DNA from: a virus
Taxonomy: Duplodnaviria > Caudoviricetes
DNA: 64,000 nucleotides
IMG/VR virus record: IMGVR_UViG_3300033074_000984
Reading direction: 5' to 3' (one strand)
Positions 7,569 through 33,205 of the stretch are shown one piece after another. The position numbers and the translations under genes were made by a program. The notes under the pieces are model-generated. The model was not told where the DNA came from. It worked only from the letters and a program-made list of their open reading frames with translations, and made no database searches. How positions within the stretch are numbered: position 1 is the first letter of the stretch; every line of letters begins with the position of its first letter.

Positions 7569-7796
7569 ATGCCAGTTTCAGACATTCTCGACGCAGCCCT
7601 TGGTTCAGACCCAGACGCGTTTCGACAAGCCTTCAATGACGAGATGTCAGCACGTCTTTCAGCGGCTGTGAGTGACAAGCGCTTGCAGCTCGCGGCTTCG
7701 CTCTTTGCTAACCCCGAGGTCGAGCCTGAAGAGGCTGAAGACCCCGACCAACCCGAGGAAGAACAAGAAGACGATGTCGGAACCGAAGACGCTTAA
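7569..7796 (+). CDS. Small acidic prohead core protein (gp67-like)
   Basis: Position after portal, acidic C-terminus, late promoter upstream. Confidence 0.6.
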   Translation: MPVSDILDAALGSDPDAFRQAFNDEMSARLSAAVSDKRLQLAASLFANPEVEPEEAEDPDQPEEEQEDDVGTEDA

Positions 7797-8583
7797 GAAG
7801 GTTATCGGTCGCTTCGCCGGCAAGGAGCAGGCGTACAAGAAGGCCGAAGAGGACCACCCCATCGAGGTGCATGACGACGGCTCAGGCACGGGCGCTGAGC
7901 AGGCGAAGAAGCTCGCACCCTATGACCGTAAGAAGAACCGCATGGGCGTCAACTCTGATGAGAAGGTCGAGGGCGTGTCAGAGTCTGCACCTCCAGGACG
8001 AGAAGACCAGGTCAAGGCGCTAAAGAAGAAGTTCCCAAAGCAGGCGGCTTACAAGATCGCTTGGAGCCAGTATCGCAAGAAGCAAGCCGTCAAAGAGGAG
8101 CAGCAGCTTGACGAGCTGACCGGTAAGGGCAAGCTCGGTGCGATCGCAACGCATCACTTCAACCAGTCTATCGAGACCGGCAAAGAGTGGCCGCCAAAGC
8201 CAGCAGATCGCGAGCGATCAAAGAAGCACTCAGAGCAGTACTCAAGGGCCCAGAACCTCAAGAGCCTCGCTGCGTGGCCTGCTGCTCAGAGAGACGCCGT
8301 CCGCAAGGGTAAGGTCGGCGGCACTCGACCGCTCGCTGGCGCAGACGCAGAGGTGCAAAAGCGAAAGAAGAAGCTCGCAGAGGGACTCGAGAACGACCCG
8401 CGCATCTCAAAGCGCTTCAGAGCTATAATGAAGCACACTGACAATTATCTCAAGAAGCGCCACATGGACATCATCACGAGAGCGAGAGCTGGACACAGCG
8501 TCGAGCAGATCGCTAGCGACTTGAAGATCCATCCCGGCATCGTTGACGCCTCTATTCGTGCAGAGCCAAGGGTGAAGAAGTGA
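7774..8583 (+). CDS. Basic hypothetical protein, probable head core/internal protein
   Basis: ATG at 7774; EEQQLDEL motif and ESAPPGREDQVKALKK..AYKIAWSQY block. Confidence 0.55.
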   Translation: MSEPKTLKKVIGRFAGKEQAYKKAEEDHPIEVHDDGSGTGAEQAKKLAPYDRKKNRMGVNSDEKVEGVSESAPPGREDQVKALKKKFPKQAAYKIAWSQYRKKQAVKEEQQLDELTGKGKLGAIATHHFNQSIETGKEWPPKPADRERSKKHSEQYSRAQNLKSLAAWPAAQRDAVRKGKVGGTRPLAGADAEVQKRKKKLAEGLENDPRISKRFRAIMKHTDNYLKKRHMDIITRARAGHSVEQIASDLKIHPGIVDASIRAEPRVKK

Positions 8584-14118: not shown

Positions 14119-14556
14119 CTAGAGCTTCGCCGACATCGTCTCGTTCCATCGTCTCCTCGCTATGAGTTCGACGCTCAACTTGAGGAGCGTTTTTGGACCA
14201 GGCCACTCGTCTGCCAGCAAGCCGTGAGACGTCTGAAAGTCAGCGATGCACGCACGAGTGCGAGGTCCCCAGTCACCGTCAACTACGAGGTCGTAGCCGA
14301 GCTTCTTCAGAGCCAGCTGTACCCGCTTCTTCGACCAGTCGACCTCTTTAACGCTAGAGGTCTTCTGCAAAGACGCACGAAGGTCTCCAAACAGTCGAGC
14401 GATCACAGGAGCGGCGGTCACCAACAGCCTCTTCGCCTCGTTCTGTAGAGGCTCGGACGCCTTGACGACGTCTTGAATGTCCTCTGTGTTCTGCATGAGA
14501 ACCTCTACAAGTGGAGAGTACTTGTAGAAGAGCTTTATGAGACTGTCGACTATCAT
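14119..14556 (-). CDS. Peptidoglycan-binding domain protein
   Basis: VQLALKKLGYDLVVDGDWGPRTRACIADFQTSHGL..PGPKT. Confidence 0.8.
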   Translation of the reverse strand: MIVDSLIKLFYKYSPLVEVLMQNTEDIQDVVKASEPLQNEAKRLLVTAAPVIARLFGDLRASLQKTSSVKEVDWSKKRVQLALKKLGYDLVVDGDWGPRTRACIADFQTSHGLLADEWPGPKTLLKLSVELIARRRWNETMSAKL

Positions 14557-15350
14557 ATCGCTATAGGCGCCTGGATCGCTGGCAACGGGTCATAACCCTC
14601 TAGTTTAACGTCTTCAAGACGAAAGTCGTCTATAGACCTCTGTCCTCTGTCAAGTATCGAGAGCTTCGGAAGCTCTCTCGGCTCTCTTGAGAGCTGGCGC
14701 TCTACCTGATCCAAGTGATTTAGGTAGATGTGAGCGTCTCCGAAGCTAATTATCAGCCTCTCAGGCTTCAGGCCAACGAGACGCGCCACGAGAGCGGTCA
14801 ACAGCGCATAAGACGCCACGTTAAACGGCACCCCGAGAAACATATCAGCGCTGCGCTGGTACATCTTACACGAGAGCCAGTCTCCCGAGACGTAGAACTG
14901 GTAAAGGAGATGACACGGCGGGAGAGCCATCTCGTCCAGCTCTGCTGGGTTCCAAGCGGACACTATCAGCCTCCTGTCATATGGAGACGTCTTGATCCGC
15001 TCAATGACTTCGGAGAGCTGGTCAACAGAGCGCCCGTCGTAGCCGCGAAACTCTCTCCATTGCGCGCCGTACACCCGTCCGAGATCACCGTTCCCGTCTG
15101 CCCACTCGTCCCAGATAGACACGCCGTTCTCTTTGAGGTATCCAACATTCGTGTTGCCGGATATGAACCAGAGAAGCTCTGCAACGACTCCTTTGAAGAA
15201 GACGCGCTTCGTAGTGAGCAGTGGAAACCGCTCTGATATGTCGATCTCTAGCTGGGGACCGAAGAGCGATATCGCGCCGGTTCCTGTTCTGTCTGATCGA
15301 CAGCTCCCCTCGTCGCGCACGCGTCTTAAAAGGTCTAAGTACTCTTTCAT
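14553..15350 (-). CDS. thyA: Thymidylate synthase
   Basis: DRTGTG, ELLWFISG, MALPPCH, YQRSADMFLGVPFN, GDAHIY.NH. Confidence 0.97.
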   Translation of the reverse strand: MKEYLDLLRRVRDEGSCRSDRTGTGAISLFGPQLEIDISERFPLLTTKRVFFKGVVAELLWFISGNTNVGYLKENGVSIWDEWADGNGDLGRVYGAQWREFRGYDGRSVDQLSEVIERIKTSPYDRRLIVSAWNPAELDEMALPPCHLLYQFYVSGDWLSCKMYQRSADMFLGVPFNVASYALLTALVARLVGLKPERLIISFGDAHIYLNHLDQVERQLSREPRELPKLSILDRGQRSIDDFRLEDVKLEGYDPLPAIQAPIAI

Positions 15351-15412
15351 GAGACGCATGATACCATCTTTCACGACCTGGGTCAACTCATAAATACCAC
15401 AAAGAGGAGCTC

Positions 15413-19938: not shown

Positions 19939-21002
19939 AAATCGCTCTTCTTTCGGACACGCACTGGGGAGCTAGGGGAGACTCTGCAGCGTTCTCTCGG
20001 TACTTCTCAAGGTTCTATCGAGAGGTCTTCTTTCCAGAGCTGAAACGCCGAGGGATAACTCGAATATTTCACCTGGGCGACCTGGTTGACCGTAGGAAGT
20101 ACATCAACTTCAAGACGCTTCGAGACGTTCGTGAGACGTTCGTAGACGAGTGTCTTCGATGCGGCTACTCTCTAGACCTCATTGTCGGCAATCACGACAC
20201 TCACTACAAGAACACCAACGAGCTCAACGCAGTTCGGGAGCTGTTCGGCGCGTACCCCATAGCGATTCACTCCTCTCCGACAGAGGTTGACCTCGACGGA
20301 CTCAAGGTCGCCCTTGTTCCGTGGGTGTGCGCTGAGAACGTCGTCGAGACGTACGAACTACTGGAGAAGACAGATGCGCAGGTCGTGTTCGGCCACCTCG
20401 AGCTCGCCGGGTTCGAGATGTACAGGGGGGTCTCGAGGCCAGAGGGCGTCGACCCATCTCTATACTCTCGTTTTGATCTCGTGCTTAGCGGCCACTATCA
20501 TCACAAGTCTTCTAGGGGCGGGATTCATTACCTTGGTGCTCCTTATGAGCTCACTTGGTCTGACTACAATGACGCCCGAGGGTTTCACGTACTCGATACA
20601 GAGACTCGCGAGCTGGAGTACGTTCAGAACCCACTCAGGATCCACAGAAAGCTCTTTTACGACGACAAGGGAAAGCGACTCGCAGAGCTAGAGCCGGTGC
20701 CGAGCGACCTTCAAGACTGCGTCGTTCGCGTCGTGACGAAGAGCCGTACGAACCCGATATGGTTCGAGAACTACACAGACGCTATTCTCGCTCAAGACCC
20801 TCAGTCTCTGTCTGTCGTTGAAGACAATCACGGTGCAGACATGGTGTCTGACAGAGAGCTGGCAGAGGACGTGGAAGACACACCGACGATGATCCACTCT
20901 TATCTCGCCGCCATGAGAATGGACGAAGACGTCAGGCCACTCACCGAGTCTATCATAGCTGGGCTGTACGAGGAGGCCCTCAACATCGCGGCTCGTGAAT
21001 GA
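19935..21002 (+). CDS. 47: Recombination endonuclease gp47 (Mre11/SbcD-like)
   Basis: SDTHWG, HLGDLVDRRK, GNHD, SGHYH. Confidence 0.95.
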   Translation: MKIALLSDTHWGARGDSAAFSRYFSRFYREVFFPELKRRGITRIFHLGDLVDRRKYINFKTLRDVRETFVDECLRCGYSLDLIVGNHDTHYKNTNELNAVRELFGAYPIAIHSSPTEVDLDGLKVALVPWVCAENVVETYELLEKTDAQVVFGHLELAGFEMYRGVSRPEGVDPSLYSRFDLVLSGHYHHKSSRGGIHYLGAPYELTWSDYNDARGFHVLDTETRELEYVQNPLRIHRKLFYDDKGKRLAELEPVPSDLQDCVVRVVTKSRTNPIWFENYTDAILAQDPQSLSVVEDNHGADMVSDRELAEDVEDTPTMIHSYLAAMRMDEDVRPLTESIIAGLYEEALNIAARE

Positions 21003-22711
21003 TCATCTTTAGGTCCATACGTTGGAAGAACTTTCTTTCGACCGGTAACGCGTGGACGGAGGTTCGCCTCGACGCTGCTCCCACCACGCTCATCGTAGGT
21101 AAGAACGGCTCTGGCAAGAGCACGATGCTCGACGCTCTGATGTACGGTCTTTACGGCCGACCGTATCGAAAGGTCAAGCTTGGCAAGTTGCAGAATCGCG
21201 TGACGCGCAAGGGCCTAGAGGTCCAGGTGGAGCTTGAAACCAACGGCGCGAAGTACCTAGTGGTTCGGGGGATGAACCCAGCGATCTTCGAGGTCTACAA
21301 GAACGACGCGCTCGTTTATCAAGACAGCGACAAGAGAGACTATCAACAGGTCTTTGAGCGATCCGTCTTGAAGATGAACCACAAGTCGTTCTCTCAGGTC
21401 GTGGTGCTGGGTAGCGCCGGTTACGTGCCGTTCATGAGTCTTCCAGCTGGTGATCGCAGACGTGTCGTCGAGGACCTCCTTGACATCGAGATCTTCAGCG
21501 TCATGAACGCGCTGCTACGTGGCGCGATAACAGAGCTTGAGCGAGAGCTCTCTAGTGCAGAGAGCTCTCGACGCATTAACGCTGAGCGCCTGGCTGTAGC
21601 TAGGGAGCACGCTAACAAGACGTTCGAGAGCATCGAACGCGTCATATCGTCTCGTGAGAGCGCTCTTGCGTCTGTAGAGAGCGAGATAGCGGAGAGCGAG
21701 GGCGATCGCGTGAAGCTGTCTTCAGAGCGAGACGAGCTCTTAAGGCTCACCGCAGACGGAACCGCCGTCTCCGAGAACGTCAGACGGTTTGGCGAGCTCG
21801 AGCGCTCCATGTCAAAGAAGAGGAGAGACGTCAAGAAGAAGATCTCCTTCTTTTCAGAGAGCACTGCGTGTCCGACGTGCACTCAAGAGATCGACGACGA
21901 GTTTCGTGAGTCACGGGTGCTCGCGCTTGGCGATCATGACGAAGAGCTAGAGCTTGGTCAGGAGAAGCTTCGCGCTGAGATAGCACGACTGGTTCTGAGA
22001 CAGAACGAGATCAGTAGCCTCGTGACAAGAGCTTCAGCTGTCTCCAGACAGATAACCACGTTAGAGACGAAGGAGAGGATGCTACGCGCCAGGCTTGAGG
22101 AGATTCGGGCTGAGATAGAAGAGGCCCGTGCTCAGATTCTATCTCAGGTTGGTGAAGACCGTACCGGTGAGATCGAGGCGGCTTTGAGAGAGGACGAGAG
22201 ACGCATAACAGAGCTGTCTACTCGCCGTCGCGCCCAGGCAGTCGCTGAGCAGGCGCTTCACGACGGAGGCATAAAGGCTCGAATAATCTCACGCTACATC
22301 CCCGTCATCAACAAGCTGATCAACAAGTACCTCGCTGCGTTAGAGTTCGTATGCAGCTTTAACCTCGATGAGGAGTTTAGGGAGAGCATCCGCGTCAACG
22401 GTCAGGACGGCGAGTCGTACAACTCGTTCTCTGAGGGTGAGAAGTTCAGAATGAACGTCGCTATCCTCTTTACATGGCGATCACTGGCTGCGATGCGTAG
22501 CAGCTCAGACACCAACCTCCTGATAATGGACGAGATCCTTAACAGCGCGCTCGACGAGGAGGGCACTGAAGAGTTTTTTAAGTTGCTGAACCAGTTGACA
22601 AAGGGAACGAACACGTTCATAATATCGCACGGGATGGAGACTGACAAGTTTCCGGTGATACTCTCTTTTGAGAAGACCAGTGGTTTTTCTAAGATGACGG
22701 AGTCGGAATGA
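20999..22711 (+). CDS. 46: Recombination ATPase gp46 (Rad50/SbcC-like)
   Basis: KNFLSTGN, GKNGSGKST, CPTC hook, FSEGEK, LIMDE. Confidence 0.95.
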   Translation: MIIFRSIRWKNFLSTGNAWTEVRLDAAPTTLIVGKNGSGKSTMLDALMYGLYGRPYRKVKLGKLQNRVTRKGLEVQVELETNGAKYLVVRGMNPAIFEVYKNDALVYQDSDKRDYQQVFERSVLKMNHKSFSQVVVLGSAGYVPFMSLPAGDRRRVVEDLLDIEIFSVMNALLRGAITELERELSSAESSRRINAERLAVAREHANKTFESIERVISSRESALASVESEIAESEGDRVKLSSERDELLRLTADGTAVSENVRRFGELERSMSKKRRDVKKKISFFSESTACPTCTQEIDDEFRESRVLALGDHDEELELGQEKLRAEIARLVLRQNEISSLVTRASAVSRQITTLETKERMLRARLEEIRAEIEEARAQILSQVGEDRTGEIEAALREDERRITELSTRRRAQAVAEQALHDGGIKARIISRYIPVINKLINKYLAALEFVCSFNLDEEFRESIRVNGQDGESYNSFSEGEKFRMNVAILFTWRSLAAMRSSSDTNLLIMDEILNSALDEEGTEEFFKLLNQLTKGTNTFIISHGMETDKFPVILSFEKTSGFSKMTESE

Positions 22712-23163
22712 CCAATACGAAGATCTACATCGCTGCCCCGCTCTTCACCTTTGGAGAGCGAACGCAGAACATGGTTCTCGGTGACGCACTCGTGAAGCTC
22801 GGCTACGAGGTGTATCTGCCTCAGTACCTTGACATCGAGGGCCGGACCGGCGCGTTCGTCTCCAGCAAGCTGAGATCGGCCATTAACGAAGCCGACGTGA
22901 TCGTCGCTTGCATGGATGCAGAGGATAACGGCACCGCGTGGGAGATGGGCTACGCATTCGACAAGTGCCTCATCATCTCTTACTACACGAACGTCAAGTT
23001 CGAGCCGATCGGCGGCATCGACTCTCCGTTCAACTGCATGAACTATTACGGCTCTGATCGCGTCATTGACGCGAGGGCTCTTGACATCGACGAGCTAGCG
23101 GCTGCGATCTCTGACGCTATCGAGTCTGGTCTTGATAAGTGGGGTGCCGGTGGACGCGCATGA
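22708..23163 (+). CDS. Nucleoside 2-deoxyribosyltransferase / nucleotide N-glycosidase family protein
   Basis: IYIAAPLF, VYLPQ, D.GTAWEMGYA, N.M. Confidence 0.85.
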   Translation: MTNTKIYIAAPLFTFGERTQNMVLGDALVKLGYEVYLPQYLDIEGRTGAFVSSKLRSAINEADVIVACMDAEDNGTAWEMGYAFDKCLIISYYTNVKFEPIGGIDSPFNCMNYYGSDRVIDARALDIDELAAAISDAIESGLDKWGAGGRA

Positions 23164-23533
23164 GCTCGATAGAGACCTTCGGAGTCTAGAACGTCGCGCT
23201 GAAGAGGTGTTTGCAGCAGCTGTCTGTACAGACGACGACGAGACCTACGCGTTCGTTAGAGCTCTAGAGCCGTATCTCAAGCGATGGGGGACGTACGTTC
23301 CTCCGTTGAGAGTCACTGTTAAAGAGTCTGACGGCTCGATTCGAGAGCTCTCTACCTTTGAGATTCAGAGCGTCGTGTCTCATTGGAGACACGTCGGTCA
23401 TCTCGACGAGAACGAGAACTTGGAGTGGGACGTGTACTCCTGCACCTTTAGGGGGCCAAACGGTCTTCTGGAGCTTCAGTACGACTACCTGCTCAAGAGA
23501 GCTACGATACGGAGCAAGCGATGCGCCTCTTGA
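23132..23533 (+). CDS. Hypothetical protein
   Basis: ORF overlapping both neighbours; start uncertain. Confidence 0.5.
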   Translation: MISGVPVDAHELDRDLRSLERRAEEVFAAAVCTDDDETYAFVRALEPYLKRWGTYVPPLRVTVKESDGSIRELSTFEIQSVVSHWRHVGHLDENENLEWDVYSCTFRGPNGLLELQYDYLLKRATIRSKRCAS

Positions 23534-24042
23534 GCATGAACAGTGACGTCTTACGTACGCCGTGCGCACCCTTCAACTTCGCCGACCCGCCGTTTGATCC
23601 CGTGGCGTACGCTAAAGAGCTAGCGAAGCTCATGCTCGACAGCAACGGCATCGGGCTGTCTGCTAACCAGACAGCCAGCGACTTTGACACGTCTCCCGAG
23701 CATCGCTTCGCCGTGTTCGCACTCGCTGCAGAGCCTAACATCGTCTGTTATAACCCACGCGTAGTGCACTGGGGCTCTGAGCAGGTCCTCCTCGAAGAGG
23801 GCTGTCTTAGCTTTCCAGGCTTGATAGTCAAGGTGTCCAGGCCACGAGACGTCAGAGTGAGGTACCAGACGCCCAACGGCGAGACTGAGTCTAGGTTCCT
23901 TACAGGAATGACTGCGAGAGCCTTTCAGCACGAGCTAGATCATCTTAGCGGAGTGCTGTTCTTTGACAGGGCTTCTAGGATGAATCGTGATCGAGCGATG
24001 CGAAGGTGGGACAGGAGCAGACAGAGTGGGAAGTTATCTTAA
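23521..24042 (+). CDS. def: Peptide deformylase
   Basis: GIGLSANQ, EGCLS, QHELDHL. Confidence 0.95.
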   Translation: MRLLSMNSDVLRTPCAPFNFADPPFDPVAYAKELAKLMLDSNGIGLSANQTASDFDTSPEHRFAVFALAAEPNIVCYNPRVVHWGSEQVLLEEGCLSFPGLIVKVSRPRDVRVRYQTPNGETESRFLTGMTARAFQHELDHLSGVLFFDRASRMNRDRAMRRWDRSRQSGKLS

Positions 24043-24212
24043 GCACAGCAACGTGTCTGTCGCGATAGACCTCAATCCCTATCAGTGGAGAGTGCACGTG
24101 GCGTACTCTCCGCCTGTAGGAAAGGGGTTTGACGCGCACCGCAGCTTCTTTCTGTTGCGCGTGTTGTTCTTGCGTGTTATGATAGTCATAGACAACGGAG
24201 AGGCAAAAGAGC

Positions 24213-24626
24213 TTGAGTAAAGACTGGGTAGCGGACGTCTCTGAGATGTCCGAGAAGTTTAAGGTGTTCGACCGAGTTCGATCTATGGACAGTGAAACGC
24301 TGAGAGAGTTCTTTCAGCTGCGGCTGCGCATGATCCAGGAAGAGGTCGACGAGATTCGTGACGCTGAAACGGGCGAAGACGTCCTTGACGGTCTCATTGA
24401 CCTCGCTGTGTTCACGATCGGCGCGTTGGTGCTGTTCGACGCCGAGGCTTACGAGGCCTGGAACCGGGTTCACGCCGCCAACATGGCGAAGATGCCTGGC
24501 GTCAAGCCTGGTCGGCCGAACCCCTTGGGTTTGCCCGACCTTATCAAGCCACCAGGCTGGGAGTCGCCGAGAGTCGACGGGCTCGCTGGCAGACTCGTAG
24601 AGCTGTTTTCTGGAGAAGACTCATGA
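24213..24626 (+). CDS. MazG-like NTP pyrophosphohydrolase (possible dCTPase)
   Basis: IQEEVDE..DGLIDL, W.RVH.ANM.K, DLIKPPGW. Confidence 0.75.
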   Translation: MSKDWVADVSEMSEKFKVFDRVRSMDSETLREFFQLRLRMIQEEVDEIRDAETGEDVLDGLIDLAVFTIGALVLFDAEAYEAWNRVHAANMAKMPGVKPGRPNPLGLPDLIKPPGWESPRVDGLAGRLVELFSGEDS

Positions 24627-25147
24627 CGGAATGGACCACTGAGTTCACTGCTTCCAAAGCAGGTCTTACGGCGCTTAAGAACGAGAGACACAAGGAGTTT
24701 CTTGAAGTGATCGAGGCCGCTGACCCTAACAGAGAGGACCCGTGGTTCGCTCGATACGCTGAGATGGTTCGTACGGGCGACTACGCTCGTGAGTCTGTTC
24801 GAGTGCTTGCAGAGTGCGGTGCGCTTCAGGTGCAGAAGGACCATGACTATCAGAACGCCGCCTCAAGCGTTCGACAAGCGATGCACTATCGCCGGGGGGT
24901 GTCAACGATCTTTGACATGATCTGGCAGAAGCTGCTTCGGGCCAGGTCCATCATAGAGGCGTATGAGGCTGACTCGAGCTTCGTTCCCTCTAACGAAGCT
25001 CTTGAAGACACGTTTCGAGACGCCATCAACTACCTCTCCTTTGCAATATCCTACATGAGGGGCAAGATGGATGGTCAAGAGCTGAACGTGGGTCTCGACG
25101 CGTTCAATCGTCCGGTGGAGGGTAACGAGTGCTCGAGCCGCACGTAG
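24623..25147 (+). CDS. Nucleotide-modification-associated all-alpha protein (DUF1599-like)
   Basis: K.HDY, K..RA.S, EALEDTFRDAINY. Confidence 0.6.
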   Translation: MTEWTTEFTASKAGLTALKNERHKEFLEVIEAADPNREDPWFARYAEMVRTGDYARESVRVLAECGALQVQKDHDYQNAASSVRQAMHYRRGVSTIFDMIWQKLLRARSIIEAYEADSSFVPSNEALEDTFRDAINYLSFAISYMRGKMDGQELNVGLDAFNRPVEGNECSSRT

Positions 25148-25875
25148 AAGACGTTAGAGAGCTGTTCGCTCGCAAGTTTGAGCACAATGAGTTCGTGATC
25201 GACAAGACGGGTGTACGCCTGGTTGAGGTTGTCGGCCGGTCGTTCGTCGCTGACGAAGATCACATCTTTGGTCTTCCAAACGAGAGCTATGTTCGTAGGG
25301 AGCTCGAGTGGTACGAGTCAATGTCTCTGAGCGTTGACGACATACCAGGTGGTCCTCCTAAGATCTGGAAAGAAGCGTCGTCCAAAGACGGTCGGTCGCT
25401 GATCAACTCGAACTACGGCTATCTCATATACTCTATGGAGAACTATGAGCAGTACAGGCACGTCTTTAAAGAGTTAAAGAGGTCACGCACTTCTCGACGA
25501 GCAGTGATGATCTACCAACGCCCGTCTATGTGGTACGACTACAATCGCGACGGTCGAAGCGACTTCATATGCACCAACGCTGTGTCTTATCTGATCCGTG
25601 ACGGAGCGCTCGACGCAGTCGTTCAGATGCGATCGAACGACGCATGGGCCGGCTATCGAAACGACCACGCGTGGCAGCGGCACGTCCTAGAGAAGCTAGC
25701 GCAAGACCTGGATGTGGACGTCGGCGTTATTCACTGGAACGCGGCGAGTCTCCATCTGTACGAGCATCAGTTCTATCTCTTGCGTCATTATGTCGAGACC
25801 GGCGAAGACGCCATCACCAAGGCGCGTTACGTCGAGCTCTATGGAGACGACAGTTGGGCATCAAACGCGTCTTAG
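25129..25875 (+). CDS. 42: dCMP hydroxymethyltransferase (T4 gp42 homolog)
   Basis: VIDKTGV, RELEWY, INSNYG, SDFICTN, MRSND, RND with the Asp that specifies dCMP. Confidence 0.93.
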   Translation: MLEPHVEDVRELFARKFEHNEFVIDKTGVRLVEVVGRSFVADEDHIFGLPNESYVRRELEWYESMSLSVDDIPGGPPKIWKEASSKDGRSLINSNYGYLIYSMENYEQYRHVFKELKRSRTSRRAVMIYQRPSMWYDYNRDGRSDFICTNAVSYLIRDGALDAVVQMRSNDAWAGYRNDHAWQRHVLEKLAQDLDVDVGVIHWNAASLHLYEHQFYLLRHYVETGEDAITKARYVELYGDDSWASNAS

Positions 25876-26402
25876 AGCGTCTCTTTAAACGACGCTCTTC
25901 TAACGTCTTTTCAGACCCTATCGAGGCGGTGCTTGCCAGGAGCGAGCCGTCAAAGTGGGACAAGCGGTTTCTAGAGATAGCGAAGCTCGTATCGACGTGG
26001 TCTAAGGACCCGTCGACCGGTGTCGGAGCGGTTTACGTCTCTCCAGAGAGACGTCTCCTCTCTATCGGCTACAACGGCTTTCCACGGGACATGCCAGACA
26101 ACGACTTGTTCTATCACGACCGCGACGAGAAGCTTGCTAGGACGGTGCACGCTGAGAAGAACGGCATCTACAACGCCACAGAGAACGGCGTGTCGCTGAA
26201 GGGCTCGACGCTGTACGTCTATGGGTGCCAGGTGTGCCACCTGTGCTCTCTTGGAGTCATGCAGGTCGGTGTCAAGCGAGTCGTTGTCGCGTACCCTCGA
26301 TCCAAGGTGAAGACAGAATGGCAGCAGAGTACCGAGAGAACCAGGAGCTACTTCCGGGGTGCCGGTATAGAGTACGTGGAGACGGTGATCGAAGGCGAGT
26401 GA
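25854..26402 (+). CDS. cd: dCMP deaminase
   Basis: SKDPSTGVGAV, GYNGFP, HAEKN, VCHLC; TTG start after GGAG. Confidence 0.9.
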   Translation: MGIKRVLERLFKRRSSNVFSDPIEAVLARSEPSKWDKRFLEIAKLVSTWSKDPSTGVGAVYVSPERRLLSIGYNGFPRDMPDNDLFYHDRDEKLARTVHAEKNGIYNATENGVSLKGSTLYVYGCQVCHLCSLGVMQVGVKRVVVAYPRSKVKTEWQQSTERTRSYFRGAGIEYVETVIEGE

Positions 26403-26779
26403 TTGTCGTCGGCATCAACCCGTCATCTGCTCGCTCTATCACTGCTGGCAGCACCCTAGCTAGGGTGCATAGGTGGATGACTTATTGTGGTGAGACGACG
26501 TATGACTTTACGAACGTCGTCTTGACTCCAGGCGACTACTCAAGAGGCATGGTCGACTTTGGCGACCTCTCTCGTAGCGTATCAGGGTACGAGCGAGTGG
26601 TGGCTCTTGGTGACTTTGTAAGCTACTGTCTGATGCGTGCAGGCGTAGATCACTACGTCGCGCCTCACCCTTCTGGTCGCAACAGGAAGATGAACGACCA
26701 ATGCTTCGTTACCGTTCAGATCGAGGGCTTGCGAGCATACCTAGAGGTGAGCGAACCGTTGAGAGCATTGAATGATTGA
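26399..26779 (+). CDS. Small uracil-DNA-glycosylase-superfamily-like protein
   Basis: VVGINPS, VVALG, PHPSGRNR. Confidence 0.65.
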   Translation: MIVVGINPSSARSITAGSTLARVHRWMTYCGETTYDFTNVVLTPGDYSRGMVDFGDLSRSVSGYERVVALGDFVSYCLMRAGVDHYVAPHPSGRNRKMNDQCFVTVQIEGLRAYLEVSEPLRALND

Positions 26780-27599
26780 AGCCATTTACGTTCCGACCTG
26801 GCGCAGGCCGACACAGCACACTGTAGAGCAGCTTCCTCAAAAGTGGCGCGACATCACGCGGCTCGTGGTTGACGAGCGCGATCGCGACATGCACGAGGCT
26901 GCTGGCTACAACACGCTGTTGTGTGACGTGCAGGGCCAAGGCCCAGCGATAGTGCGAGAGTGGATATGCCACCACGCTCGTGACAACGGCGTCGAGAAGT
27001 ACGGCGTGTTTGACGACGACATCTGCAGCTTCGCCTACACGAGACTCGCCACCGAGAAGGACAAGTACCCCCAGTGGAACACGCGTCTTGAGCCAGAGGG
27101 CTTCGACGTCATGTTCTCTGTTCTAGACGAGTGGCTCGACGAGTTCGTGACGTGTGGTCTGGACGTTCGCTGGAACCCCCCGAATGAGCGACCGTATCAC
27201 CAGAACTTCCGTCAGTCTGCGTCGCACTTCTACAACAGCCGCACTCTGCCGCTCGACAAGCTCGACTGGAACGACATCTGGGCAGCAGAGGACTTCAACG
27301 TTGTTCTCCAGCTGCTCACTATGGGCTACCAAAACCGAGTGGCCACCAGGTACAGGACTTGCCCGACACCGACACAGACGCCCGGGGGCATCACTGACCT
27401 ACGAACCGTCGAGCGGCATAACGAGAGCATGCGCCAGCTAAAGGCGAAGTTTCCTCGATTCGTTAGGCTCTACGAGAAGAAAGCCTCCTCGGGAGAGTGG
27501 GGCGGCATAACAAAGCTAGCGGCTGAGATATCATGGAAAGCCGCGTGGAAATCATCTCAAGAGAAGCGAGACGACGCTCTCGAGGAGCTGTTCGCGTAA
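26772..27599 (+). CDS. GT-A glycosyltransferase of the TET-associated / beta-glucosyl-hmC glucosyltransferase type
   Basis: IYVPTWRR, FDDDI, EDF..VLQLL..GY.N, PGG, L..KFP. Confidence 0.8.
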   Translation: MIEAIYVPTWRRPTQHTVEQLPQKWRDITRLVVDERDRDMHEAAGYNTLLCDVQGQGPAIVREWICHHARDNGVEKYGVFDDDICSFAYTRLATEKDKYPQWNTRLEPEGFDVMFSVLDEWLDEFVTCGLDVRWNPPNERPYHQNFRQSASHFYNSRTLPLDKLDWNDIWAAEDFNVVLQLLTMGYQNRVATRYRTCPTPTQTPGGITDLRTVERHNESMRQLKAKFPRFVRLYEKKASSGEWGGITKLAAEISWKAAWKSSQEKRDDALEELFA

Positions 27600-27642
27600 A
27601 GTTAACTGCTCTAGCACCACTCACTCGACTAGAAAGAGGCGA

Positions 27643-28845
27643 ATGAAGTACGTCGGAATCATCCCGCTCATCGGGGGCATGGACATCGCTCACGGCAAGG
27701 TGCTCGGTCATCGTCCCGAGTACCTCGTGTCGTGGACGCCGTTCTCCTCAAACGACTCGCACCTGGTGAACTACTACGAGGGTGAAGTTCCTTACGTGCT
27801 CGTTGATAACGGAGACAAGCGCCCGGCTGGTAAGATCGACGTGGTTCACAGCACCTGTCCCTGCGCCGGTCTGTCTACGCTCTCAAAGAAGGCCAGTCCA
27901 CTCAACCCAATAAATGAGTGGATGACGACGTGCGCAGAGTACGTCATGGGTGAGATGCGCCCAGAGGTGTACTGGGGAGAGAACGCTCCGGCGCTGTCTA
28001 CAGCGATGGGCACCCCTGTACGCGAGAAGATTCGAGAGGTCGGTAAGAAGCACGGGTACGTGATGTCTTGTTACAAGACCAAGTCGTTGCTTCACGGGGT
28101 GCCTCAGATTCGCGAGCGCACCTTTTACTTCTTCTGGCGCGGCAATCACGTTCCGCTACTCAACTACTACGCACGGCCGCACGTCAAGATCGAAGATCTT
28201 ATCAGCGCTCCACACGGCAACTTCCAGACAGAGCCCGTGCGTCCTGGTAAGATAACAGCCGACCCACTCTACACGTACGCTCGCGAGGCGCTTCTCGACG
28301 GCGCGTCTCATCGAGACATAGTCGCCGGGCTAGAAAAGACGACTCAGATACTGGACATCGTTCAGAGTCACGTGCCTGGTAAAGAGCCGGCTCAGGCGTT
28401 CTTGGACGCAGCTGACTGGCTTCGTGCGCATGACATGGAACGAACAGCCGCTTTCTGTGAACGCGTGTCAAAGAAGTTCGGCACAGACAGCGGCATGATG
28501 CGTAGGTCCATAAACCTGCCGAAGGACTATATCGGAGCCTTTGTCGGCTACCTGCCGACGAACGTCGCTCACCCAGTGGAGGACCGTCACCTCTCCTACA
28601 GGGAGTGCATGGCTATCATGGGTCTTCCAGACGACTTTGAGCTCTTGAGTCCCAAGCGCAACCTCAACCACGTCTGTCAGAACGTGCCCGTGGGCACCGC
28701 CAGCGACATGGTGGAGGAGGTTCGCGCGGCGCTCGAAGGAGAGCGGCCGAGGATACGAGCTGACTACGTGTTTCAGTCAAACCATCGCCAGACGCACGAG
28801 TCGCTCATTGATGACAAGCCAACCATAGAAGGGATCTTCTCATGA
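27643..28845 (+). CDS. Divergent C5 cytosine methyltransferase-like protein
   Basis: CPCAGLS (motif IV), GENAP (VI), GVPQIRERTF (VIII); motif I is PLIGG instead of FxGxGG. Confidence 0.75.
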   Translation: MKYVGIIPLIGGMDIAHGKVLGHRPEYLVSWTPFSSNDSHLVNYYEGEVPYVLVDNGDKRPAGKIDVVHSTCPCAGLSTLSKKASPLNPINEWMTTCAEYVMGEMRPEVYWGENAPALSTAMGTPVREKIREVGKKHGYVMSCYKTKSLLHGVPQIRERTFYFFWRGNHVPLLNYYARPHVKIEDLISAPHGNFQTEPVRPGKITADPLYTYAREALLDGASHRDIVAGLEKTTQILDIVQSHVPGKEPAQAFLDAADWLRAHDMERTAAFCERVSKKFGTDSGMMRRSINLPKDYIGAFVGYLPTNVAHPVEDRHLSYRECMAIMGLPDDFELLSPKRNLNHVCQNVPVGTASDMVEEVRAALEGERPRIRADYVFQSNHRQTHESLIDDKPTIEGIFS

Positions 28846-29204
28846 CGTTGCTACCGTCCCCAGACTCAGACAGCAAGGACTACGTCTTCAGTAACGGTCT
28901 CGAGCTCTCTAGAGAGGCCCTTACAGCGCCGTTCAAGTACAACGAGGGCAAGCTCGTGGGCGAGGTGCTTGACTACGTCGCGAGCACGTACGGCTCATAT
29001 TACGCGCGCGATCCCAACAAGACTCAGGCCATCGACCTTATCGAAGCGTCTGGCAACCTTCCAGGCTTCGCTAGCGGCAGCATCTTGAAGTACGCTACGC
29101 GACTCGGCAAGAAGTCGGGTACGACGCGTAGGTCTGATCTTATGAAGATCATTCACTATGCGCTGTTGCTTCTGAACTTCAATGAGGAGAGTTCAAAGAC
29201 GTGA
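28842..29204 (+). CDS. DUF3310-like protein
   Basis: FKYNE, STY..YY, GF..G.ILKYA.R.GKK, DLMKIIHY. Confidence 0.7.
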   Translation: MTLLPSPDSDSKDYVFSNGLELSREALTAPFKYNEGKLVGEVLDYVASTYGSYYARDPNKTQAIDLIEASGNLPGFASGSILKYATRLGKKSGTTRRSDLMKIIHYALLLLNFNEESSKT

Positions 29205-31336
29205 AGATCGGAGTACCACTAGAGGAGCTTCAGAAGTGCAAGATCTTCGTAGCTACGCCGATGTACGGCGGCCAGTGCTCCGGGACGTTTGTGCAGTCGA
29301 TACAGGCTTTACAAACAGAGCTCAAGAACGCGGGTGTCGAGCTCCAGTCATACTACCTCTTTAATGAGTCGCTCATAACGCGAGCGCGTAACTACTGCGC
29401 GGACGAGTTTCTTCGCAGCAACGCGACCCACCTGCTCTTTATCGACTCTGACATCGGCTTTCGTCCTAAAGACGTTTTGAGCATGCTCGCGCTCTCCTTG
29501 ACGGAGCCACCAAACGAGTACGACATTCTTGGTGGTCCGTACCCGAAGAAGTCCTTGCCTGGGAGCGCTCTTGTTCTTACGGAGGATGGCGAGCAGCCGA
29601 TTAAAAAACTAGTTTCAGGGAAATATAGTGGCAAGGTGTTGAGTCTGTCTGAGGACGGCTCGAAGCTAGAGTTTAAGAGGGTGGTGAGTCATTCTCGATT
29701 CAGGCCTGCTTCTCCAAAGCGATGGGTTAAGTTGGTTACAGAAGGGGTAAATAAGAGAAAGCAGACCATGACGCACGATCATGAGTGTGCGATCGTGCGA
29801 GACGCTCTTCGTCCTACATTAGACTGGTTGGCAGCGGATAATATAGACGGCTGTTACGTGGTTAGGAAGCCAGGCGGCTCCGGGTTCTTGAGTGAGAACT
29901 TAGCCTACTCTTCTCAGCAGATATCTTTTCTTGTAGGTACCTTGCTAGGAGATGCTAGCGTCAAGAAGAACGGCCAAGTCGCAGTGGTCCATTCGGCTGC
30001 GTTTCGTGAGTATGCGGAGCTGAAGGCTAGCATCTTTGGCGGCGAAGTTCGCGACAGAGTCATTGAGTCTTTTGGCGGCAAGTTCAAAGCGAGTGGCTTC
30101 TATACGCCGGTTAACGCTCAAACAAAGCTCTTGAGGTCACTTCTCTACAAGAACGGAAAGAAAGAGATATCAAGCATAGTAGACTTGATAGATGAAGCCG
30201 CTCTTTCGTTTTGGTACATGGACGACGGCTTCACGAGGAGCTCTAACGGCATAGCGCACCTATGCACAGAGTGTTTCTCTAGCTCTGACATCGACTTATT
30301 GATCTCTAAGTTGAGAGGTATGGGGTTCGATCCGTCAACCTTCTCGTATAATGGGGGTACGAGGTTACGATTTAAGCGAGTCGACAGTGACCGTCTCCTT
30401 AACATTGTATCTCGCTACGCTCCAGACTGCATGCTCTATAAAATACCAGAGAGCTTGAGGTCGCCTGATAGGTTTGACTACTCTTCTATACAGCGGCTGC
30501 CATACTCGATCGCTCGAGTAAGAGCGATCGAAGAGGCGTCTGATCAGGGAGACCAGTACGACATAGGCGTTGAGGACAATCACAATTTTATAGTTTCTGG
30601 CTACGTCGTTCATAACTGCATCTCGTGGGAGAAGATACGTCTCGCAGTAGACAAGGGATACGGCGACCCCAACAACCCAGTGCCTGACCTACAGAACCCT
30701 GACATCCTCTCGAACTTCGTCGGCGACTACGTGTTCAACCTCGCGCATGGTAAGACGAACTTCGACGTACAAAAGCCGGCTGAAGTTCTTGAGTTGGGCA
30801 CGGGCTTCATGCTCATACGTCGCGAGACGCTCTTGAAGTTCGCAGAGGCCTATCCCAACTATCGCATCCGTCCAGACCACGTTCGTACACAGCACTTTGA
30901 CGGCAAGAGGTTGATCACGCAGTTCTTTCAAGCGGAGATTGACCAGCCAGACCCGTACAACGAGTTCTCTGGCGCGCTTGAACGGATCGCTGCTGGCACT
31001 GAACAGTTTAACGCGAAGGCTGAGGCTGCAGCTGCTATTCGTCGTTACAAAGAGGCGCAGGAGAAGGCCACTCGCCGATATCTGTCCGAAGATTACTGGT
31101 TCTGTCAAAAGGCGCGAGCTGTCGGTCTCAAGACCTGGTTGTGTCCGTGGGTGAAGCTGGCGCACGTTGGAACGTACTCGTTTGGCGGCTCGATCCAAGA
31201 CCTGGCGAACATCGGCGCGCCGATGACCGCTTCGCCAGAGATGCTCATGAAGCCAGGCGTGCAGAGAGCTTCTAAGCAGCCAATGACTCGAAAGGAGGCC
31301 AGGCGAGCGGCCAGGCCTAAGGTGAAGTCACGATGA
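29201..31336 (+). CDS. GT-A glycosyltransferase-like protein containing an intein
   Basis: ATPMYGG, ESLITRARN, FIDSDI, YPKK / CISWEK, GTGFMLI, LSEDYWFC. Confidence 0.8.
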   Translation: MKIGVPLEELQKCKIFVATPMYGGQCSGTFVQSIQALQTELKNAGVELQSYYLFNESLITRARNYCADEFLRSNATHLLFIDSDIGFRPKDVLSMLALSLTEPPNEYDILGGPYPKKSLPGSALVLTEDGEQPIKKLVSGKYSGKVLSLSEDGSKLEFKRVVSHSRFRPASPKRWVKLVTEGVNKRKQTMTHDHECAIVRDALRPTLDWLAADNIDGCYVVRKPGGSGFLSENLAYSSQQISFLVGTLLGDASVKKNGQVAVVHSAAFREYAELKASIFGGEVRDRVIESFGGKFKASGFYTPVNAQTKLLRSLLYKNGKKEISSIVDLIDEAALSFWYMDDGFTRSSNGIAHLCTECFSSSDIDLLISKLRGMGFDPSTFSYNGGTRLRFKRVDSDRLLNIVSRYAPDCMLYKIPESLRSPDRFDYSSIQRLPYSIARVRAIEEASDQGDQYDIGVEDNHNFIVSGYVVHNCISWEKIRLAVDKGYGDPNNPVPDLQNPDILSNFVGDYVFNLAHGKTNFDVQKPAEVLELGTGFMLIRRETLLKFAEAYPNYRIRPDHVRTQHFDGKRLITQFFQAEIDQPDPYNEFSGALERIAAGTEQFNAKAEAAAAIRRYKEAQEKATRRYLSEDYWFCQKARAVGLKTWLCPWVKLAHVGTYSFGGSIQDLANIGAPMTASPEMLMKPGVQRASKQPMTRKEARRAARPKVKSR
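29552..30616 (+). mobile_element. Intein (355 aa, Ser1, His-Asn end, Cys+1) with LAGLIDADG endonuclease
   Basis: SLPGSALV, THDH, LVGTLLGDA, FWYMDDG, YDIGVEDNHNF..VVHN/C. Confidence 0.92.
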
Positions 31337-32157
31337 GAGAGATGCCGCAGTCTGACTGGTGGGGCGAGACGAGAAAGCGACTCGCCGATGACTATGCGAA
31401 GCTGTCGCATGACGAGTTCAAGAACTGGCCGTCGGTTCGGTCGATACCGCTCTACTCGCATCTCGAGGACCAGTGGCAGGCTCAGTGGGACGCGGTGTCA
31501 AGGCTGGCTTCGTTGGGCCCAGAGTGGCCCGGGATCATTCGCCGCGGCGAGAGCCTTCATGGACACACCGACGAGAGCCGGGACGCAGCCGCTCGTCGCG
31601 TGACGCTTGGAGGCGCAGAGATGTCAACGACTCCCTGGTACGTCCAAGCTCTTCATCACGCTCTCGTCTTTGAGAGCGTCACGCGCCGGCCGATATGGTC
31701 CTACAAGAGGTACGTCGAGATCGGAGCTGGAATCGGCGAGCTCGCGAAGCTCGTGCTCGACAACTGCGACGGCGCAGAGTACTTCATATATGACTTTCCT
31801 GAGACGGCTGCGATATCTAACCTCTACCTAGAGGGCCGAGCGCGATACGTCGAGTCGACCTCAGAGGTCGACGTCGTTCCTGGTGACACGCTCTTAGTAG
31901 CTACGTGGAGCCTCTCAGAGTGTCCAGTAGAGGACCGAGCGACTCTTTTAGAGCCTTTACGAGGTGCAGACGCTCTCGTAGCTTTTCAGACAGACATCTG
32001 GGGCTACGATAACATGGACTACTTCGCGTGGGACTTTCCAAAAGAGCTAGACGCCTACGTACGGTTCAGGCCACACATTCCTGACTACAGGTACTCCCAG
32101 GGAACGAACGTTTATTGTTTTGGGAAAACAAGCGTTGCTCCCTCGGCGGGTTCATGA
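31333..32157 (+). CDS. Class I SAM-dependent methyltransferase, putative sugar O-methyltransferase type
   Basis: VEIGAGIGELA, YFIYDFPE, ATWSLSECP. Confidence 0.7.
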   Translation: MREMPQSDWWGETRKRLADDYAKLSHDEFKNWPSVRSIPLYSHLEDQWQAQWDAVSRLASLGPEWPGIIRRGESLHGHTDESRDAAARRVTLGGAEMSTTPWYVQALHHALVFESVTRRPIWSYKRYVEIGAGIGELAKLVLDNCDGAEYFIYDFPETAAISNLYLEGRARYVESTSEVDVVPGDTLLVATWSLSECPVEDRATLLEPLRGADALVAFQTDIWGYDNMDYFAWDFPKELDAYVRFRPHIPDYRYSQGTNVYCFGKTSVAPSAGS

Positions 32158-32184: not shown

Positions 32185-32538
32185 ATGATCGACAACAAGG
32201 CGCTTGAGATAGCGACGCGAAGGTTCGTTGAGGTCTCGGAGATGACTTCCCCAGACCCTGCAGTCTTTGAAGCGATGAAGATCGTGATGTCGGAGGTGAT
32301 CCGCGCTTACGAGGTTGGTCTGTGGAACACGGACCCGCCGTCGAGTCCGACATCTGACTGTGTCGTCTATGCAAGGCATGACGGGACAAAGTGTGAGCGC
32401 GCGTTCTACGGCTGCTGGTGGAACCCGGTGGCTGGCTGGTACAGCGACGAGATACAGTCTTGTCTCGAGACCTACAGATGGAAGCCGTTGATGTGGAGAC
32501 GACTTCATGTGTCTCCACCGTTGCCAAAGGAGAAATGA
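32185..32538 (+). CDS. Hypothetical protein
   Basis: ORF with RBS after a sigma70-like promoter. Confidence 0.5.
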   Translation: MIDNKALEIATRRFVEVSEMTSPDPAVFEAMKIVMSEVIRAYEVGLWNTDPPSSPTSDCVVYARHDGTKCERAFYGCWWNPVAGWYSDEIQSCLETYRWKPLMWRRLHVSPPLPKEK

Positions 32539-32539
32539 G

Positions 32540-33205
32540 TTGGTACTGTCACCCGTAACTCTAGCCGTGCTGAAGAACTTCGCCTCCATCAGCCCGCACA
32601 TGGGATTCCGTAAGGGGCCTCTTCAGTCTACCATTGCAGACTCGAAGACGGTGCTTGCGCGCGCTAAACTCGATCAAGACTTAGACTTCGACTTCGCCGT
32701 TCACGAGCTGCCGAGGCTCTTACAAGCGCTGTCTCTCGTCGGCCAGGACGCAGACGTGTCGTGGACAGGCACAGGAGCAGTGACGATATCTGGCGGGTCA
32801 AAGACCATCTCGTACACGCCGTCAGATCGAAGCATGCTCACTCTGCCTCCCGACAAGGAGCCGAACTTTCCCGACTTCGGCGTCGAGTTCGTGGTTGAAG
32901 CGGACGTGCTTCGTGACATCGTCAAGACGTCAGACGTTCTCGGTCTTCCGAACCTCGTCATCGAGGGAGGCGACTTCGGCGTTCGCATCACCGCGATACA
33001 GCTCGACAACCCGAGCTCTGACAAGAGCAGCACGGGCATCTCGTCGAGCTCGCCGTGCGAGTTCAAGGCGGTCTTTGACAAGGCGAACCTTCTCTTTCTT
33101 CGCGACAACTACACCGTGCAGCTCTCGAGCAAGCGACTGTCTCGATGGAAGGGAGCAGTCGCTGAGTACTACGTTGCGCTAGACAAGCGCAGCGTGATTC
33201 CGTAA
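32540..33205 (+). CDS. 45: Sliding clamp gp45
   Basis: LS..TL.VLKNFASI, LARA, EYYVAL. Confidence 0.9.
   Translation: MVLSPVTLAVLKNFASISPHMGFRKGPLQSTIADSKTVLARAKLDQDLDFDFAVHELPRLLQALSLVGQDADVSWTGTGAVTISGGSKTISYTPSDRSMLTLPPDKEPNFPDFGVEFVVEADVLRDIVKTSDVLGLPNLVIEGGDFGVRITAIQLDNPSSDKSSTGISSSSPCEFKAVFDKANLLFLRDNYTVQLSSKRLSRWKGAVAEYYVALDKRSVIP

Follow-up and report, generated by a model that had tools for sequence, protein, structure and literature searches.

A predicted glycosyl-hydroxymethylcytosine locus with a swap-in decorating slot, and an adjoining glycosyltransferase-methyltransferase module, in an uncultured T4-like phage

Layout of the locus

The window, by which we mean the whole stretch of 64,000 nucleotides analysed here, corresponds, on the reverse strand, to bases 66-64065 of the 161,065-bp IMG/VR record IMGVR_UViG_3300033074_000984 (Duplodnaviria; Caudoviricetes), which is estimated to be 95% complete, with ~55% G+C. 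Our subject is a predicted cytosine hypermodification locus lying between two genes of T4-type replication, gp46 (20999-22711) and gp45 (32507-33205); gp47, gp44, gp62 and regA complete the T4-type backbone found in the record. The interval holds fifteen genes, all on the plus strand and mostly overlapping. A preliminary description made from the window had named eleven genes of a modification pathway here, and all eleven were found on the plus strand in the places it had given them, although it had passed over a peptide deformylase, two open reading frames (ORFs) without matches, and an intein of 355 amino acids (aa).

A gp42-type core predicted to make the modified base

The gene on which the prediction turns encodes a gp42-type dCMP hydroxymethylase (248 aa, 25129-25875), a predicted 5-hydroxymethyl-dCMP synthase that scores 263 bits against T4 gp42 (PDB 1b5e) and is 58% identical to the gp42 of S16/STP4-a. 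It has the thymidylate synthase (TS) fold (PF00303, 41.7 bits against a cut-off of 24.3), with the catalytic Cys, C146 in ThyA numbering, in the motif SDFIC. In many T4-like phages a TS homolog makes 5-hydroxy-dCMP and not 5-hydroxymethyl-dCMP, Asn there replacing Asp at ThyA D169, while an acidic residue at the L143 position admits water and so yields a hydroxymethyl instead of a methyl group (PMC13326640). Taking L143, C146, D169 and N177 as diagnostic positions from that work, we read Asp, Cys, Asp and Asp in the window protein (motifs SDFIC and MRSND..RND), and the same four residues in 48 of 48 gp42-type sequences aligned, namely the window's, that of Serratia phage PS2 and those of 46 relatives. 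Asp at the N177 position marks a dCMP-type as against a dUMP-type enzyme; it is the last residue of RND in the window's gp42, whereas Asn stands there in the phage's own ThyA. Of the two controls, RB69 gp48 reads MRSQN, with Asn at D169, and the phage's ThyA reads L, C, D, N. By every published sequence criterion the window's TS homolog is thus a hydroxymethylase, and the earlier statement that gp42 is present and makes hydroxymethyl-dCMP is supported by a signature that is not that of a 5-hydroxy-dCMP synthase. The RB69-type route to 5-hydroxycytosine was ruled out by the Asp at D169 together with an identity of only 26% to RB69 gp48, and a TET route to 5-hydroxymethylcytosine (hmC) was ruled out as well, TET/JBP (PF12851) having no match in the whole 161-kb record.

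Conservation around gp42 was read from a clade sample of 82 related loci (two contexts and 80 IMG/VR loci). Directly upstream of gp42 in 52 of these lies a gene for a DUF1599 protein ("nucleotide modification associated domain 1"), in the window 174 aa at 24623-25147 (PF07659, 3e-5; at 24.6 bits the call falls just below the 25-bit cut-off). A hypothetical protein of Serratia phage PS2 (L002:4705-5211), encoded directly upstream of the PS2 gp42, is 48% identical to it, so the DUF1599-gp42 pairing reaches cultured hmC phages. Further upstream is a MazG-like all-alpha NTP pyrophosphohydrolase (137 aa, 24213-24626; PF01503, 1.4e-6; phrog_671, 6e-19; weak PDB matches to DR2231), kept in 44 related loci, which may be a dCTP/dUTP-clearing enzyme and thus a functional stand-in for T4 gp56. 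On the other side of gp42, and adjoining it in 52 related loci, is a dCMP deaminase (25854-26402, the start being uncertain between TTG 25854 and GTG 25929; PF00383, 2e-16; phrog_174, 9e-36). The dUMP that it makes is presumably used by the phage's canonical ThyA, which is encoded outside the locus on the minus strand (14553-15386; phrog_160, 1.8e-111), opposite to nearly all neighbouring genes.

A TAGT in an exchangeable decorating slot

Downstream of the core lies a TAGT/JGT-like DNA glycosyltransferase of the GT-A fold (275 aa, 26772-27599; PF20691, 42.2 bits against a gathering cut-off of 27.5; phrog_842, 3e-28), the only DNA-type glycosyltransferase found in the genome. Its motifs R12, FDDD at 80-83 and EDF at 172-174 are kept in the seven closest homologs as R12, FDDD and (E/Q)D(F/Y), and agree with R...DDD...EDY/F, given in bioRxiv 2023.12.21.572611 as the motif of phage GT-A enzymes reconstituted to place sugars directly on 5hmC. 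The preliminary description had seen no T4 alpha- or beta-glucosyltransferase in the window, and this holds across the whole record, in which neither PF11440 nor PF09198 has a match. The TAGT of T2 and T6 adds a second glucose, onto alpha-glucosyl-hmC, and not the first, and solitary TAGT homologs occur in 288 of 753 phage genomes and are recorded as an open problem (PMC13216743).

The gene order in the clade runs gp46, peptide deformylase, MazG, DUF1599, gp42, dCMP deaminase, a small putative member of the uracil-DNA glycosylase (UDG) superfamily that we call mini-UDG, a variable stretch, a C5-cytosine-methyltransferase-like gene, DUF3310, a second GT-A enzyme and gp45. The clade is large and uncultured. 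For the C5-methyltransferase-like protein more than 2300 homologs were found at ~45-50% identity, nearly all metagenomic and many on contigs of 150-180 kb; in each of the 38 loci whose flank upstream of this gene is 6.5 kb or longer, gp42 lies within that distance. Both flanks, and hence the complete variable stretch, are present in 57 loci (the window and 56 relatives), and across these the contents of the slot are mutually exclusive. A T4-type DNA alpha-glucosyltransferase (AGT; PF11440, E down to 9e-93) fills it in 20 loci, four of which also encode a UDP-glucose dehydrogenase, with an epimerase in three of those four; a four-gene cassette that includes a pyridoxal-phosphate (PLP) enzyme fills it in 17, a single protein of ~364 aa without assigned function in 10, a TAGT in eight including the window, a Methyltransf_23 protein in one, and nothing recognised in one. 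AGT and TAGT occur together in none. All eight TAGT loci carry gp42, which in the window lies 0.9 kb upstream of the TAGT.

Chiefly because the slot cassettes exclude one another, with AGT and TAGT never found together, we consider that the TAGT here is probably the primary transferase on hmC. Searches of the genome with the RB69 arabinose genes and with the relatives' epimerase and UDP-glucose dehydrogenase gave no match, so the donor is probably a common host NDP-hexose, and the sugar probably a common host hexose. The product could then be glucosyl-hmC, its linkage left unspecified, which would mean a non-T4 enzyme and not necessarily a non-T4 base. Taken together, the gp42 signature, the TAGT motif and a slot equivalent to that of AGT make it likely that glycosylated hmC is produced by a non-T4 transferase. 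The preliminary description had proposed hmC with a mono- or disaccharide, possibly O-methylated, and it is the single sugar, placed by a transferase other than those of T4, that survives on this evidence. An anti-restriction or anti-CRISPR role, which it had also suggested, would follow by analogy with the T-even phages.

Two of the other slot contents deserve mention. The four-gene cassette, for example at L019:5921-10004 and in 16 other loci, encodes, instead of a glycosyltransferase, proteins of 385, 330, 291 and 363 aa; of these, the one of 291 aa matches phrog_7093 (a PLP "threonine dehydratase"), and the one of 363 aa ends in a tail of the type described in the next section. We regard the cassette as a candidate for non-sugar hypermodification of hmC. 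The 361-364-aa protein, which matches phrog_14998 and no Pfam family, fills the slot by itself at L012:8906-10000 and in nine other loci.

Clamp-type tails

The C-terminal tail of the T4 and RB69 DNA polymerases binds gp45. In the window phage the polymerase (genome 150716-153229) ends in ...VESALFG, and comparable ends are found on the TAGT (...LEELFA) and on the C5-methyltransferase-like protein (...IEGIFS). Among the 371 ORFs that are 90 aa or longer, the pattern E-x(1,2)-[LIM]-F-[GASD] closes four, these three and a 135-aa ORF at window positions 63240-63647 that ends in ...METLFD and is possibly a further clamp client. Relatives were scored with a broader hydrophobic-acidic-aromatic pattern, which is present on 55% of C5-methyltransferase-like proteins and on 57% of TAGTs; for the protein that closes the four-gene cassette the figure is 81%, and for gp42, GT-A, MazG, DUF1599, mini-UDG and gp45 it is 0%. 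This is indirect but specific support for the idea that the TAGT and the C5-methyltransferase-like protein work on DNA at the clamp, with gp45 as the probable docking partner of the tailed enzymes.

The C5-methyltransferase-like and UDG-like partners

The C5-cytosine-methyltransferase-like enzyme (400 aa, 27643-28845; PF00145, 4e-12) keeps the catalytic half of its namesakes. Motifs IV (PC), VI (ENV) and VIII (QxRxR) read CPCAGLS, WGENAP and PQIRER in the window, the family consensus keeps CPCAGLS, WGENAP, PQVRER and CQNVPV, and across 38 sequences no variation is seen at C74, E113, R157 or R159. The cofactor half is another matter. Where the S-adenosylmethionine (SAM) motif I FxGxG would stand, the family has IIPLIGG, conserved at 90% or more, and no invariant Asp or Glu for motif II is seen at residues 20-54, the register against M.HhaI having been judged by eye. 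A single-sequence search of the PDB gave no match; the family profile reached M.HaeIII and M.HhaI (~E 1e-6), which along with DNMT1 align over motifs IV-VIII and IX-X only, the alignments starting at about residue 60. The altered SAM motifs and the unaligned N-terminus make ordinary use of SAM doubtful. A distant homolog (31% identical) in the cyanophage S-TIM5 has the same N-terminal motif as IIPLVGG. It is encoded 2.4 kb from that phage's annotated thymidylate synthase (L005:3757-4593 and 6977-8194), which Asp in place of N177 marks as a dCMP-type enzyme. The pairing suggests an unreported cytosine modification in this cultured phage.

Next to the slot on its other side, the mini-UDG (26318-26779, start uncertain; core ~120 aa) was recognised by its motifs and by DUF1643 at E 3e-3, which is below the cut-off. 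The motifs G-x-x-P-S, F-x-N and HPSP(L/R)NR occur in order and are conserved across 23 homologs, in which G6, P9, H91, P92, S93, N96 and R97 are invariant; the pattern is closest to the SMUG type. Against PDB profiles the matches, to 3ikb and SMUG1 (1oe4), are weak and collinear but not significant (E 0.3-1.6), and in the nearest ESM Atlas clusters (score 0.95), which consist of small viral proteins, 24-74% of members carry PF03167 UDG. No tblastn match was found in cultured phages. Between the C5-methyltransferase-like gene and the second GT-A gene is a DUF3310 protein (120 aa, 28842-29204; PF11753, 8e-8; phrog_480, 1e-26), which 44 related loci also encode downstream of the C5-methyltransferase-like gene; in other PHROGs its domain occurs fused to nucleotide kinases. 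The literature was also searched for DUF1599 and DUF3310, without useful result.

What the C5-methyltransferase-like and UDG-like partners do may be considered in several ways. It is possible that they modify cytosines that escaped replacement, that they remove deaminase-derived uracil or hydroxymethyluracil together with the DNPH1-like protein encoded after gp46, or that they attack unmodified host cytosine. It is possible, though less likely than not, that the C5-methyltransferase-like enzyme has kept the chemistry of attack on cytosine C6 around a rebuilt cofactor pocket, and carries out an undescribed DNA reaction at the replication fork; this may be a SAM-independent conversion of unreplaced cytosines, or an attack on host cytosine made together with the adjacent SMUG-like mini-glycosylase.

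An alternative is that cytosine replacement is incomplete and that the enzyme, riding on the clamp, methylates or otherwise alkylates the leftover cytosines at C5, giving virion DNA with glycosyl-hmC and a second C5 mark. The invariant catalytic Cys, ENV-type Glu and QxRxR, the clamp-type tail, the association with gp42 in 38 of 38 loci and the lack of a gp56 or gp1 homolog in the record would all fit. We nevertheless hold this to be doubtful, given the IIPLIGG in place of FxGxG, the apparent lack of a conserved acidic motif II and an N-terminal SAM region that PDB profiles do not align, and also because the MazG-like enzyme may clear dCTP efficiently.

An adjoining glycosyltransferase-methyltransferase pair

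The last two recognisable genes before gp45 encode a second GT-A enzyme and a SAM-dependent methyltransferase, and it was these that led the preliminary description to a disaccharide and an O-methyl group. The GT-A fold glycosyltransferase is a 711-aa ORF (29201-31336; phrog_1574, 4e-54) whose exteins amount to ~356 aa, the remainder being a LAGLIDADG intein of 355 aa (29552-30616; PF03161, 1e-17; Intein_splicing) that begins at Ser118 (its residue 1), ends in His-Asn472 with Cys473 at +1, and has an endonuclease domain. Alignment with intein-less homologs places the insertion in the invariant PYPKK-x-I-x-WEK, restored after splicing as PYPKK-C-ISWEK, a site that is free of inteins in all 82 related loci. 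In the enzyme itself FIDSD (DxD) and SEDY are invariant. Its profile found only GlfT2 among PDB sequences, at E 0.98, and with so weak a match the fold was shown by modelling: an intein-less homolog was modelled at pLDDT 79.6, its Foldseek matches are all GT-A, and VIA gave STIV A197 at Z 16.4 (root-mean-square deviation 2.7 over 164 residues), mimivirus R699 at Z 15.6 and LH3/ColGalT1 at Z 15.2. A relationship to the TAGT was tried and rejected, hhalign giving a probability of 0.7% and no profile relation.

The adjacent class I SAM-dependent methyltransferase (274 aa, 31333-32157, called by motifs and model) is of the small-molecule type, with EIGAGIGE and YDFPE invariant and a GxGxG motif present. 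Its model (pLDDT 88.4) matches many small-molecule O-, N- and C-methyltransferases in VIA at Z 12-13, and the fold search did not separate sugar O-methyltransferases from the others. TIGR04371, "sugar O-methyltransferase" of the NanM type, matches at 3e-9 over residues 123-168 only, and its 36.7 bits fall short of the 44-bit cut-off.

Genomic context bears directly on whether this pair acts on DNA. Homologs of the GT-A gene lie beside gp45 in phiM12, phiM7, phiN3, Cr30, DLP_6 and others, and it is a backbone gene of the clade next to gp45. In phiM12 and Cr30 the corresponding interval contains no gene of the gp42 module, and genome-wide each of the two has a canonical ThyA alone, gp42 being absent. 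The methyltransferase has nine homologs only, and directly follows the GT-A gene in all three contexts read. In one the pair stands with a C5-methyltransferase-like gene and a TAGT fragment; in another a peptide deformylase is followed directly by DUF3310 and the pair, without a gp42 module; and in the third, a T4-like contig (L095:1-8777), QueD, QueE-like, FolE, QueF and QueC lie directly upstream of DUF3310, GT-A, methyltransferase and gp45. The 7-deazaguanine genes of this contig occupy the position of the window phage's hmC module.

Since the pair recurs without gp42, a methylated disaccharide on hmC is unlikely, and the pair is a unit of its own whose presence is independent of hmC. For the same reason we judge it quite unlikely that TAGT, GT-A enzyme and methyltransferase act in series to build an hmC disaccharide, perhaps O-methylated, as the preliminary description had it. 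A serial pathway would suit the single co-oriented, tightly packed block in which the three genes lie, the DSD and EDY motifs of the GT-A enzyme, and the partial TIGR04371 match together with a weak tblastn match bearing the same annotation; phage glycosyltransferase clusters that make di- and trisaccharides on 5hmC are moreover documented (bioRxiv 2023.12.21.572611). Against it stand the occurrence of the GT-A gene in phages without gp42, and of the pair both without a gp42 module and beside 7-deazaguanine genes, the lack of any profile relation to the TAGT, a methyltransferase fold match that is generic with TIGR04371 below cut-off, and the absence of a clamp-type tail from both window proteins and from all 32 GT-A homologs scored. 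The structural neighbours of the GT-A enzyme also argue against it, being a viral glycosyltransferase (STIV A197), protein-glycosylating enzymes (mimivirus R699 and LH3/ColGalT1) and polysaccharide synthases. The acceptor of the pair seems more likely to be a protein or an envelope component than the DNA glycan.

Interpretation

We therefore favour, at a probability of roughly 65%, a reading of the locus as two modules: one for replacement of cytosine by hmC and its decoration with one sugar (24213-29204), and a separate GT-A/methyltransferase module (29201-32157). In the first, the MazG-like pyrophosphohydrolase would turn dCTP into dCMP, the gp42-type enzyme, going by its signature, would make 5-hydroxymethyl-dCMP from dCMP, and the deaminase would supply dUMP to the phage ThyA. 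For hydroxymethyl-dCMP to become a triphosphate some kinase would then be needed, and here the pathway as we can draw it has a gap; hmC would next enter DNA. The solitary TAGT, docked on gp45 by its polymerase-like C-terminal tail, would move one host NDP-sugar onto hmC, a step proposed because of its slot equivalence with the T4-type AGT, its motif and its tail. The clamp-tailed C5-methyltransferase-like enzyme and the mini-UDG would be conserved partners of this module. In the second, the intein-bearing GT-A enzyme and the SAM methyltransferase would probably glycosylate and methylate another acceptor, such as a protein or envelope component.

Several points count against the two-module reading as it stands. 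No homolog of T4 gp56 (dCTPase/dUTPase) or of T4 gp1 (dNMP kinase) was found by tblastn or phmmer in the 161-kb record, which is itself 95% complete, nor did a P-loop regular expression find a small P-loop kinase in it; the route from hydroxymethyl-dCMP to hydroxymethyl-dCTP and a complete replacement of cytosine are both putative. The phage is uncultured and its DNA chemistry is predicted from genes alone. A conserved C5-methyltransferase-like enzyme makes little sense once every C5 is occupied. The TAGT that has been characterised, that of T2 and T6, is the second transferase (PMC13216743), and a primary role for it here is suggested by context only. Finally, the clamp-tail argument would be one of resemblance to the polymerase C-terminus and of analogy with the T4/RB69 paradigm.

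Least probable of all, and in our view very improbable, is a thymine-side modification in which the deaminase turns hydroxymethyl-dC into hydroxymethyl-dU nucleotides and the TAGT/JGT-like enzyme glycosylates hydroxymethyluracil, in the manner of base J, instead of or besides hmC: the TAGT family does include the base-J glucosyltransferase fold, seven of 90 TS-linked phage deaminases tested gave 5hmdU in DNA when 5hmdC nucleotides were supplied (bioRxiv 2024.12.05.627091), and the deaminase adjoins gp42 in so many of the related loci, but a canonical ThyA would use dUMP, as in T4, the adjacent conserved UDG-like protein with its SMUG-like motifs is expected to remove uracil-type bases, and the slot alternates with the T4-type AGT, an hmC enzyme.

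Comparison with known systems

The two-module reading places the locus as a variant of a pathway type already in print. With the T-even glucosyl-hmC pathway (gp56, gp42, gp1 and alpha- and beta-glucosyltransferase in T4; alpha-glucosyltransferase and TAGT in T2 and T6) it shares a hydroxymethylase of the gp42 type, whose identity to T4-like gp42 is 53-58% and whose active-site signature is the same, a dCMP deaminase with ThyA, post-replicative glycosylation, and the replication backbone of gp46, gp45, gp44, gp62 and regA. It differs in lacking homologs of gp56, gp1 and the alpha- and beta-glucosyltransferases, a MazG-like enzyme taking the place of the dCTPase; in a TAGT that is solitary and presumably the first transferase, where that of T2 and T6 is the second; in its additional DUF1599, mini-UDG, C5-methyltransferase-like and DUF3310 proteins; and in the position of its genes, between gp46 and gp45 and not near gene 43.

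A closer precedent for the core is the MetaGPA module, whose trio of PRA-PH, TS(N177D) and dCMP deaminase, in the same order as here, is a hallmark of cytosine-modified metavirome contigs and has been linked to the modification experimentally (PMC8670742; bioRxiv 2024.12.05.627091). The decorating enzyme there is a carbamoyltransferase, here a TAGT, and a TS homolog of another lineage there makes 5mC; the MetaGPA paper (PMC8670742) makes no mention of methyltransferases. The arabinosyl-5-hydroxycytosine pathway of RB69 and DLP3 (PMC13326640) resembles the locus in its T4-like phage genome, TS homolog, clustered glycosyltransferase and complete replacement of cytosine, which for the window phage is a prediction; it differs in that the window's TS homolog has Asp and not Asn at D169 and little identity to RB69 gp48, and that no RB69 arabinose-nucleotide gene is matched.

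On the decorating side, the metavirome clusters of Pyle et al. (bioRxiv 2023.12.21.572611) likewise place an R...DDD...EDY/F GT-A enzyme by a TS homolog and a dCMP deaminase, near clamp genes, and the solitary-TAGT phages (PMC13216743) likewise have a TAGT without alpha- or beta-glucosyltransferase. In their accessible parts these two reports catalogue clusters and do not describe mini-UDG and C5-methyltransferase-like flanks, an exclusive slot or clamp-type tails. More generally, within the literature searched, we found no description of a swap-in slot with fixed flanks, of the clamp-type tails or of the conserved methyltransferase-like and UDG-like partners, and no reconstitution of any member of the window's clade. 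The C5-methyltransferase-like protein shares motifs IV, VI, VIII and IX-X with the DNA C5-cytosine methyltransferases M.HhaI and M.HaeIII (PF00145), and differs from them in its IIPLIGG motif I, the apparent lack of a conserved acidic motif II, its 60 unaligned N-terminal residues, its clamp-type tail and its company, since the product of the gp42-type enzymes found with it already occupies C5.

Which of the restriction, CRISPR and glycosylase defences a phage escapes is set by base hypermodification, whose enzymes also serve DNA labelling and sequencing chemistry. The locus shows how such a pathway is laid out in a very large uncultured T4-like clade, with a fixed pre-replicative core followed by a swap-in decorating slot; this slot, with a mini-UDG on one side and a C5-methyltransferase-like enzyme on the other, is a ready source of candidate hmC-decorating enzymes. 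The clamp-type tails suggest a way for decorating enzymes to reach nascent DNA, and the methyltransferase-like partner poses a clear biochemical question. The GT-A/methyltransferase pair also carries a caution, that neighbouring glycosyltransferase and methyltransferase genes are not all members of a DNA pathway.

Flanking and minor genes

The left flank of the locus, gp46, is a Rad50-like recombination nuclease subunit (PF02463, AAA_23) with 34-40% identity to the gp46 of phiM12, Cr30 and the related context L007, and the right flank is the gp45 sliding clamp (PF09116; phrog_223, 3e-44). No match to the locus turned up when 50,697 phage records were searched by megablast, and so no close relative among cultured phages. 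After gp46 comes an NDT/DNPH1-like protein of the nucleoside 2-deoxyribosyltransferase family (151 aa, 22708-23163; PF05014, 3e-10; phrog_7995/1817; PDB 7o62 and NDT 7m5h), for which BLAST found no homolog among the 82 related loci, and then an ORF without assigned function (133 aa, 23132-23533) that has no Pfam or PHROG match and no homolog in the same 82 loci. Just before gp45, a 117-aa ORF (32185-32538) is likewise without assigned function, family match or homolog in the related loci. A promoter and terminator scan of the locus gave no convincing internal signals, with eight promoter-like sites where 4.0 +/- 1.9 were expected and fewer terminator-like sites than expected. The peptide deformylase (23521-24042; PF01327, 1e-31; phrog_2890) has the same position in Cr30, L007 and a further related context (L008), and is a backbone gene outside the modification set. 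Positions 24043-24212 (171 nt) form the sole sizeable non-coding gap in the locus, and one weak terminator-like hairpin lies within it at 24140-24159.

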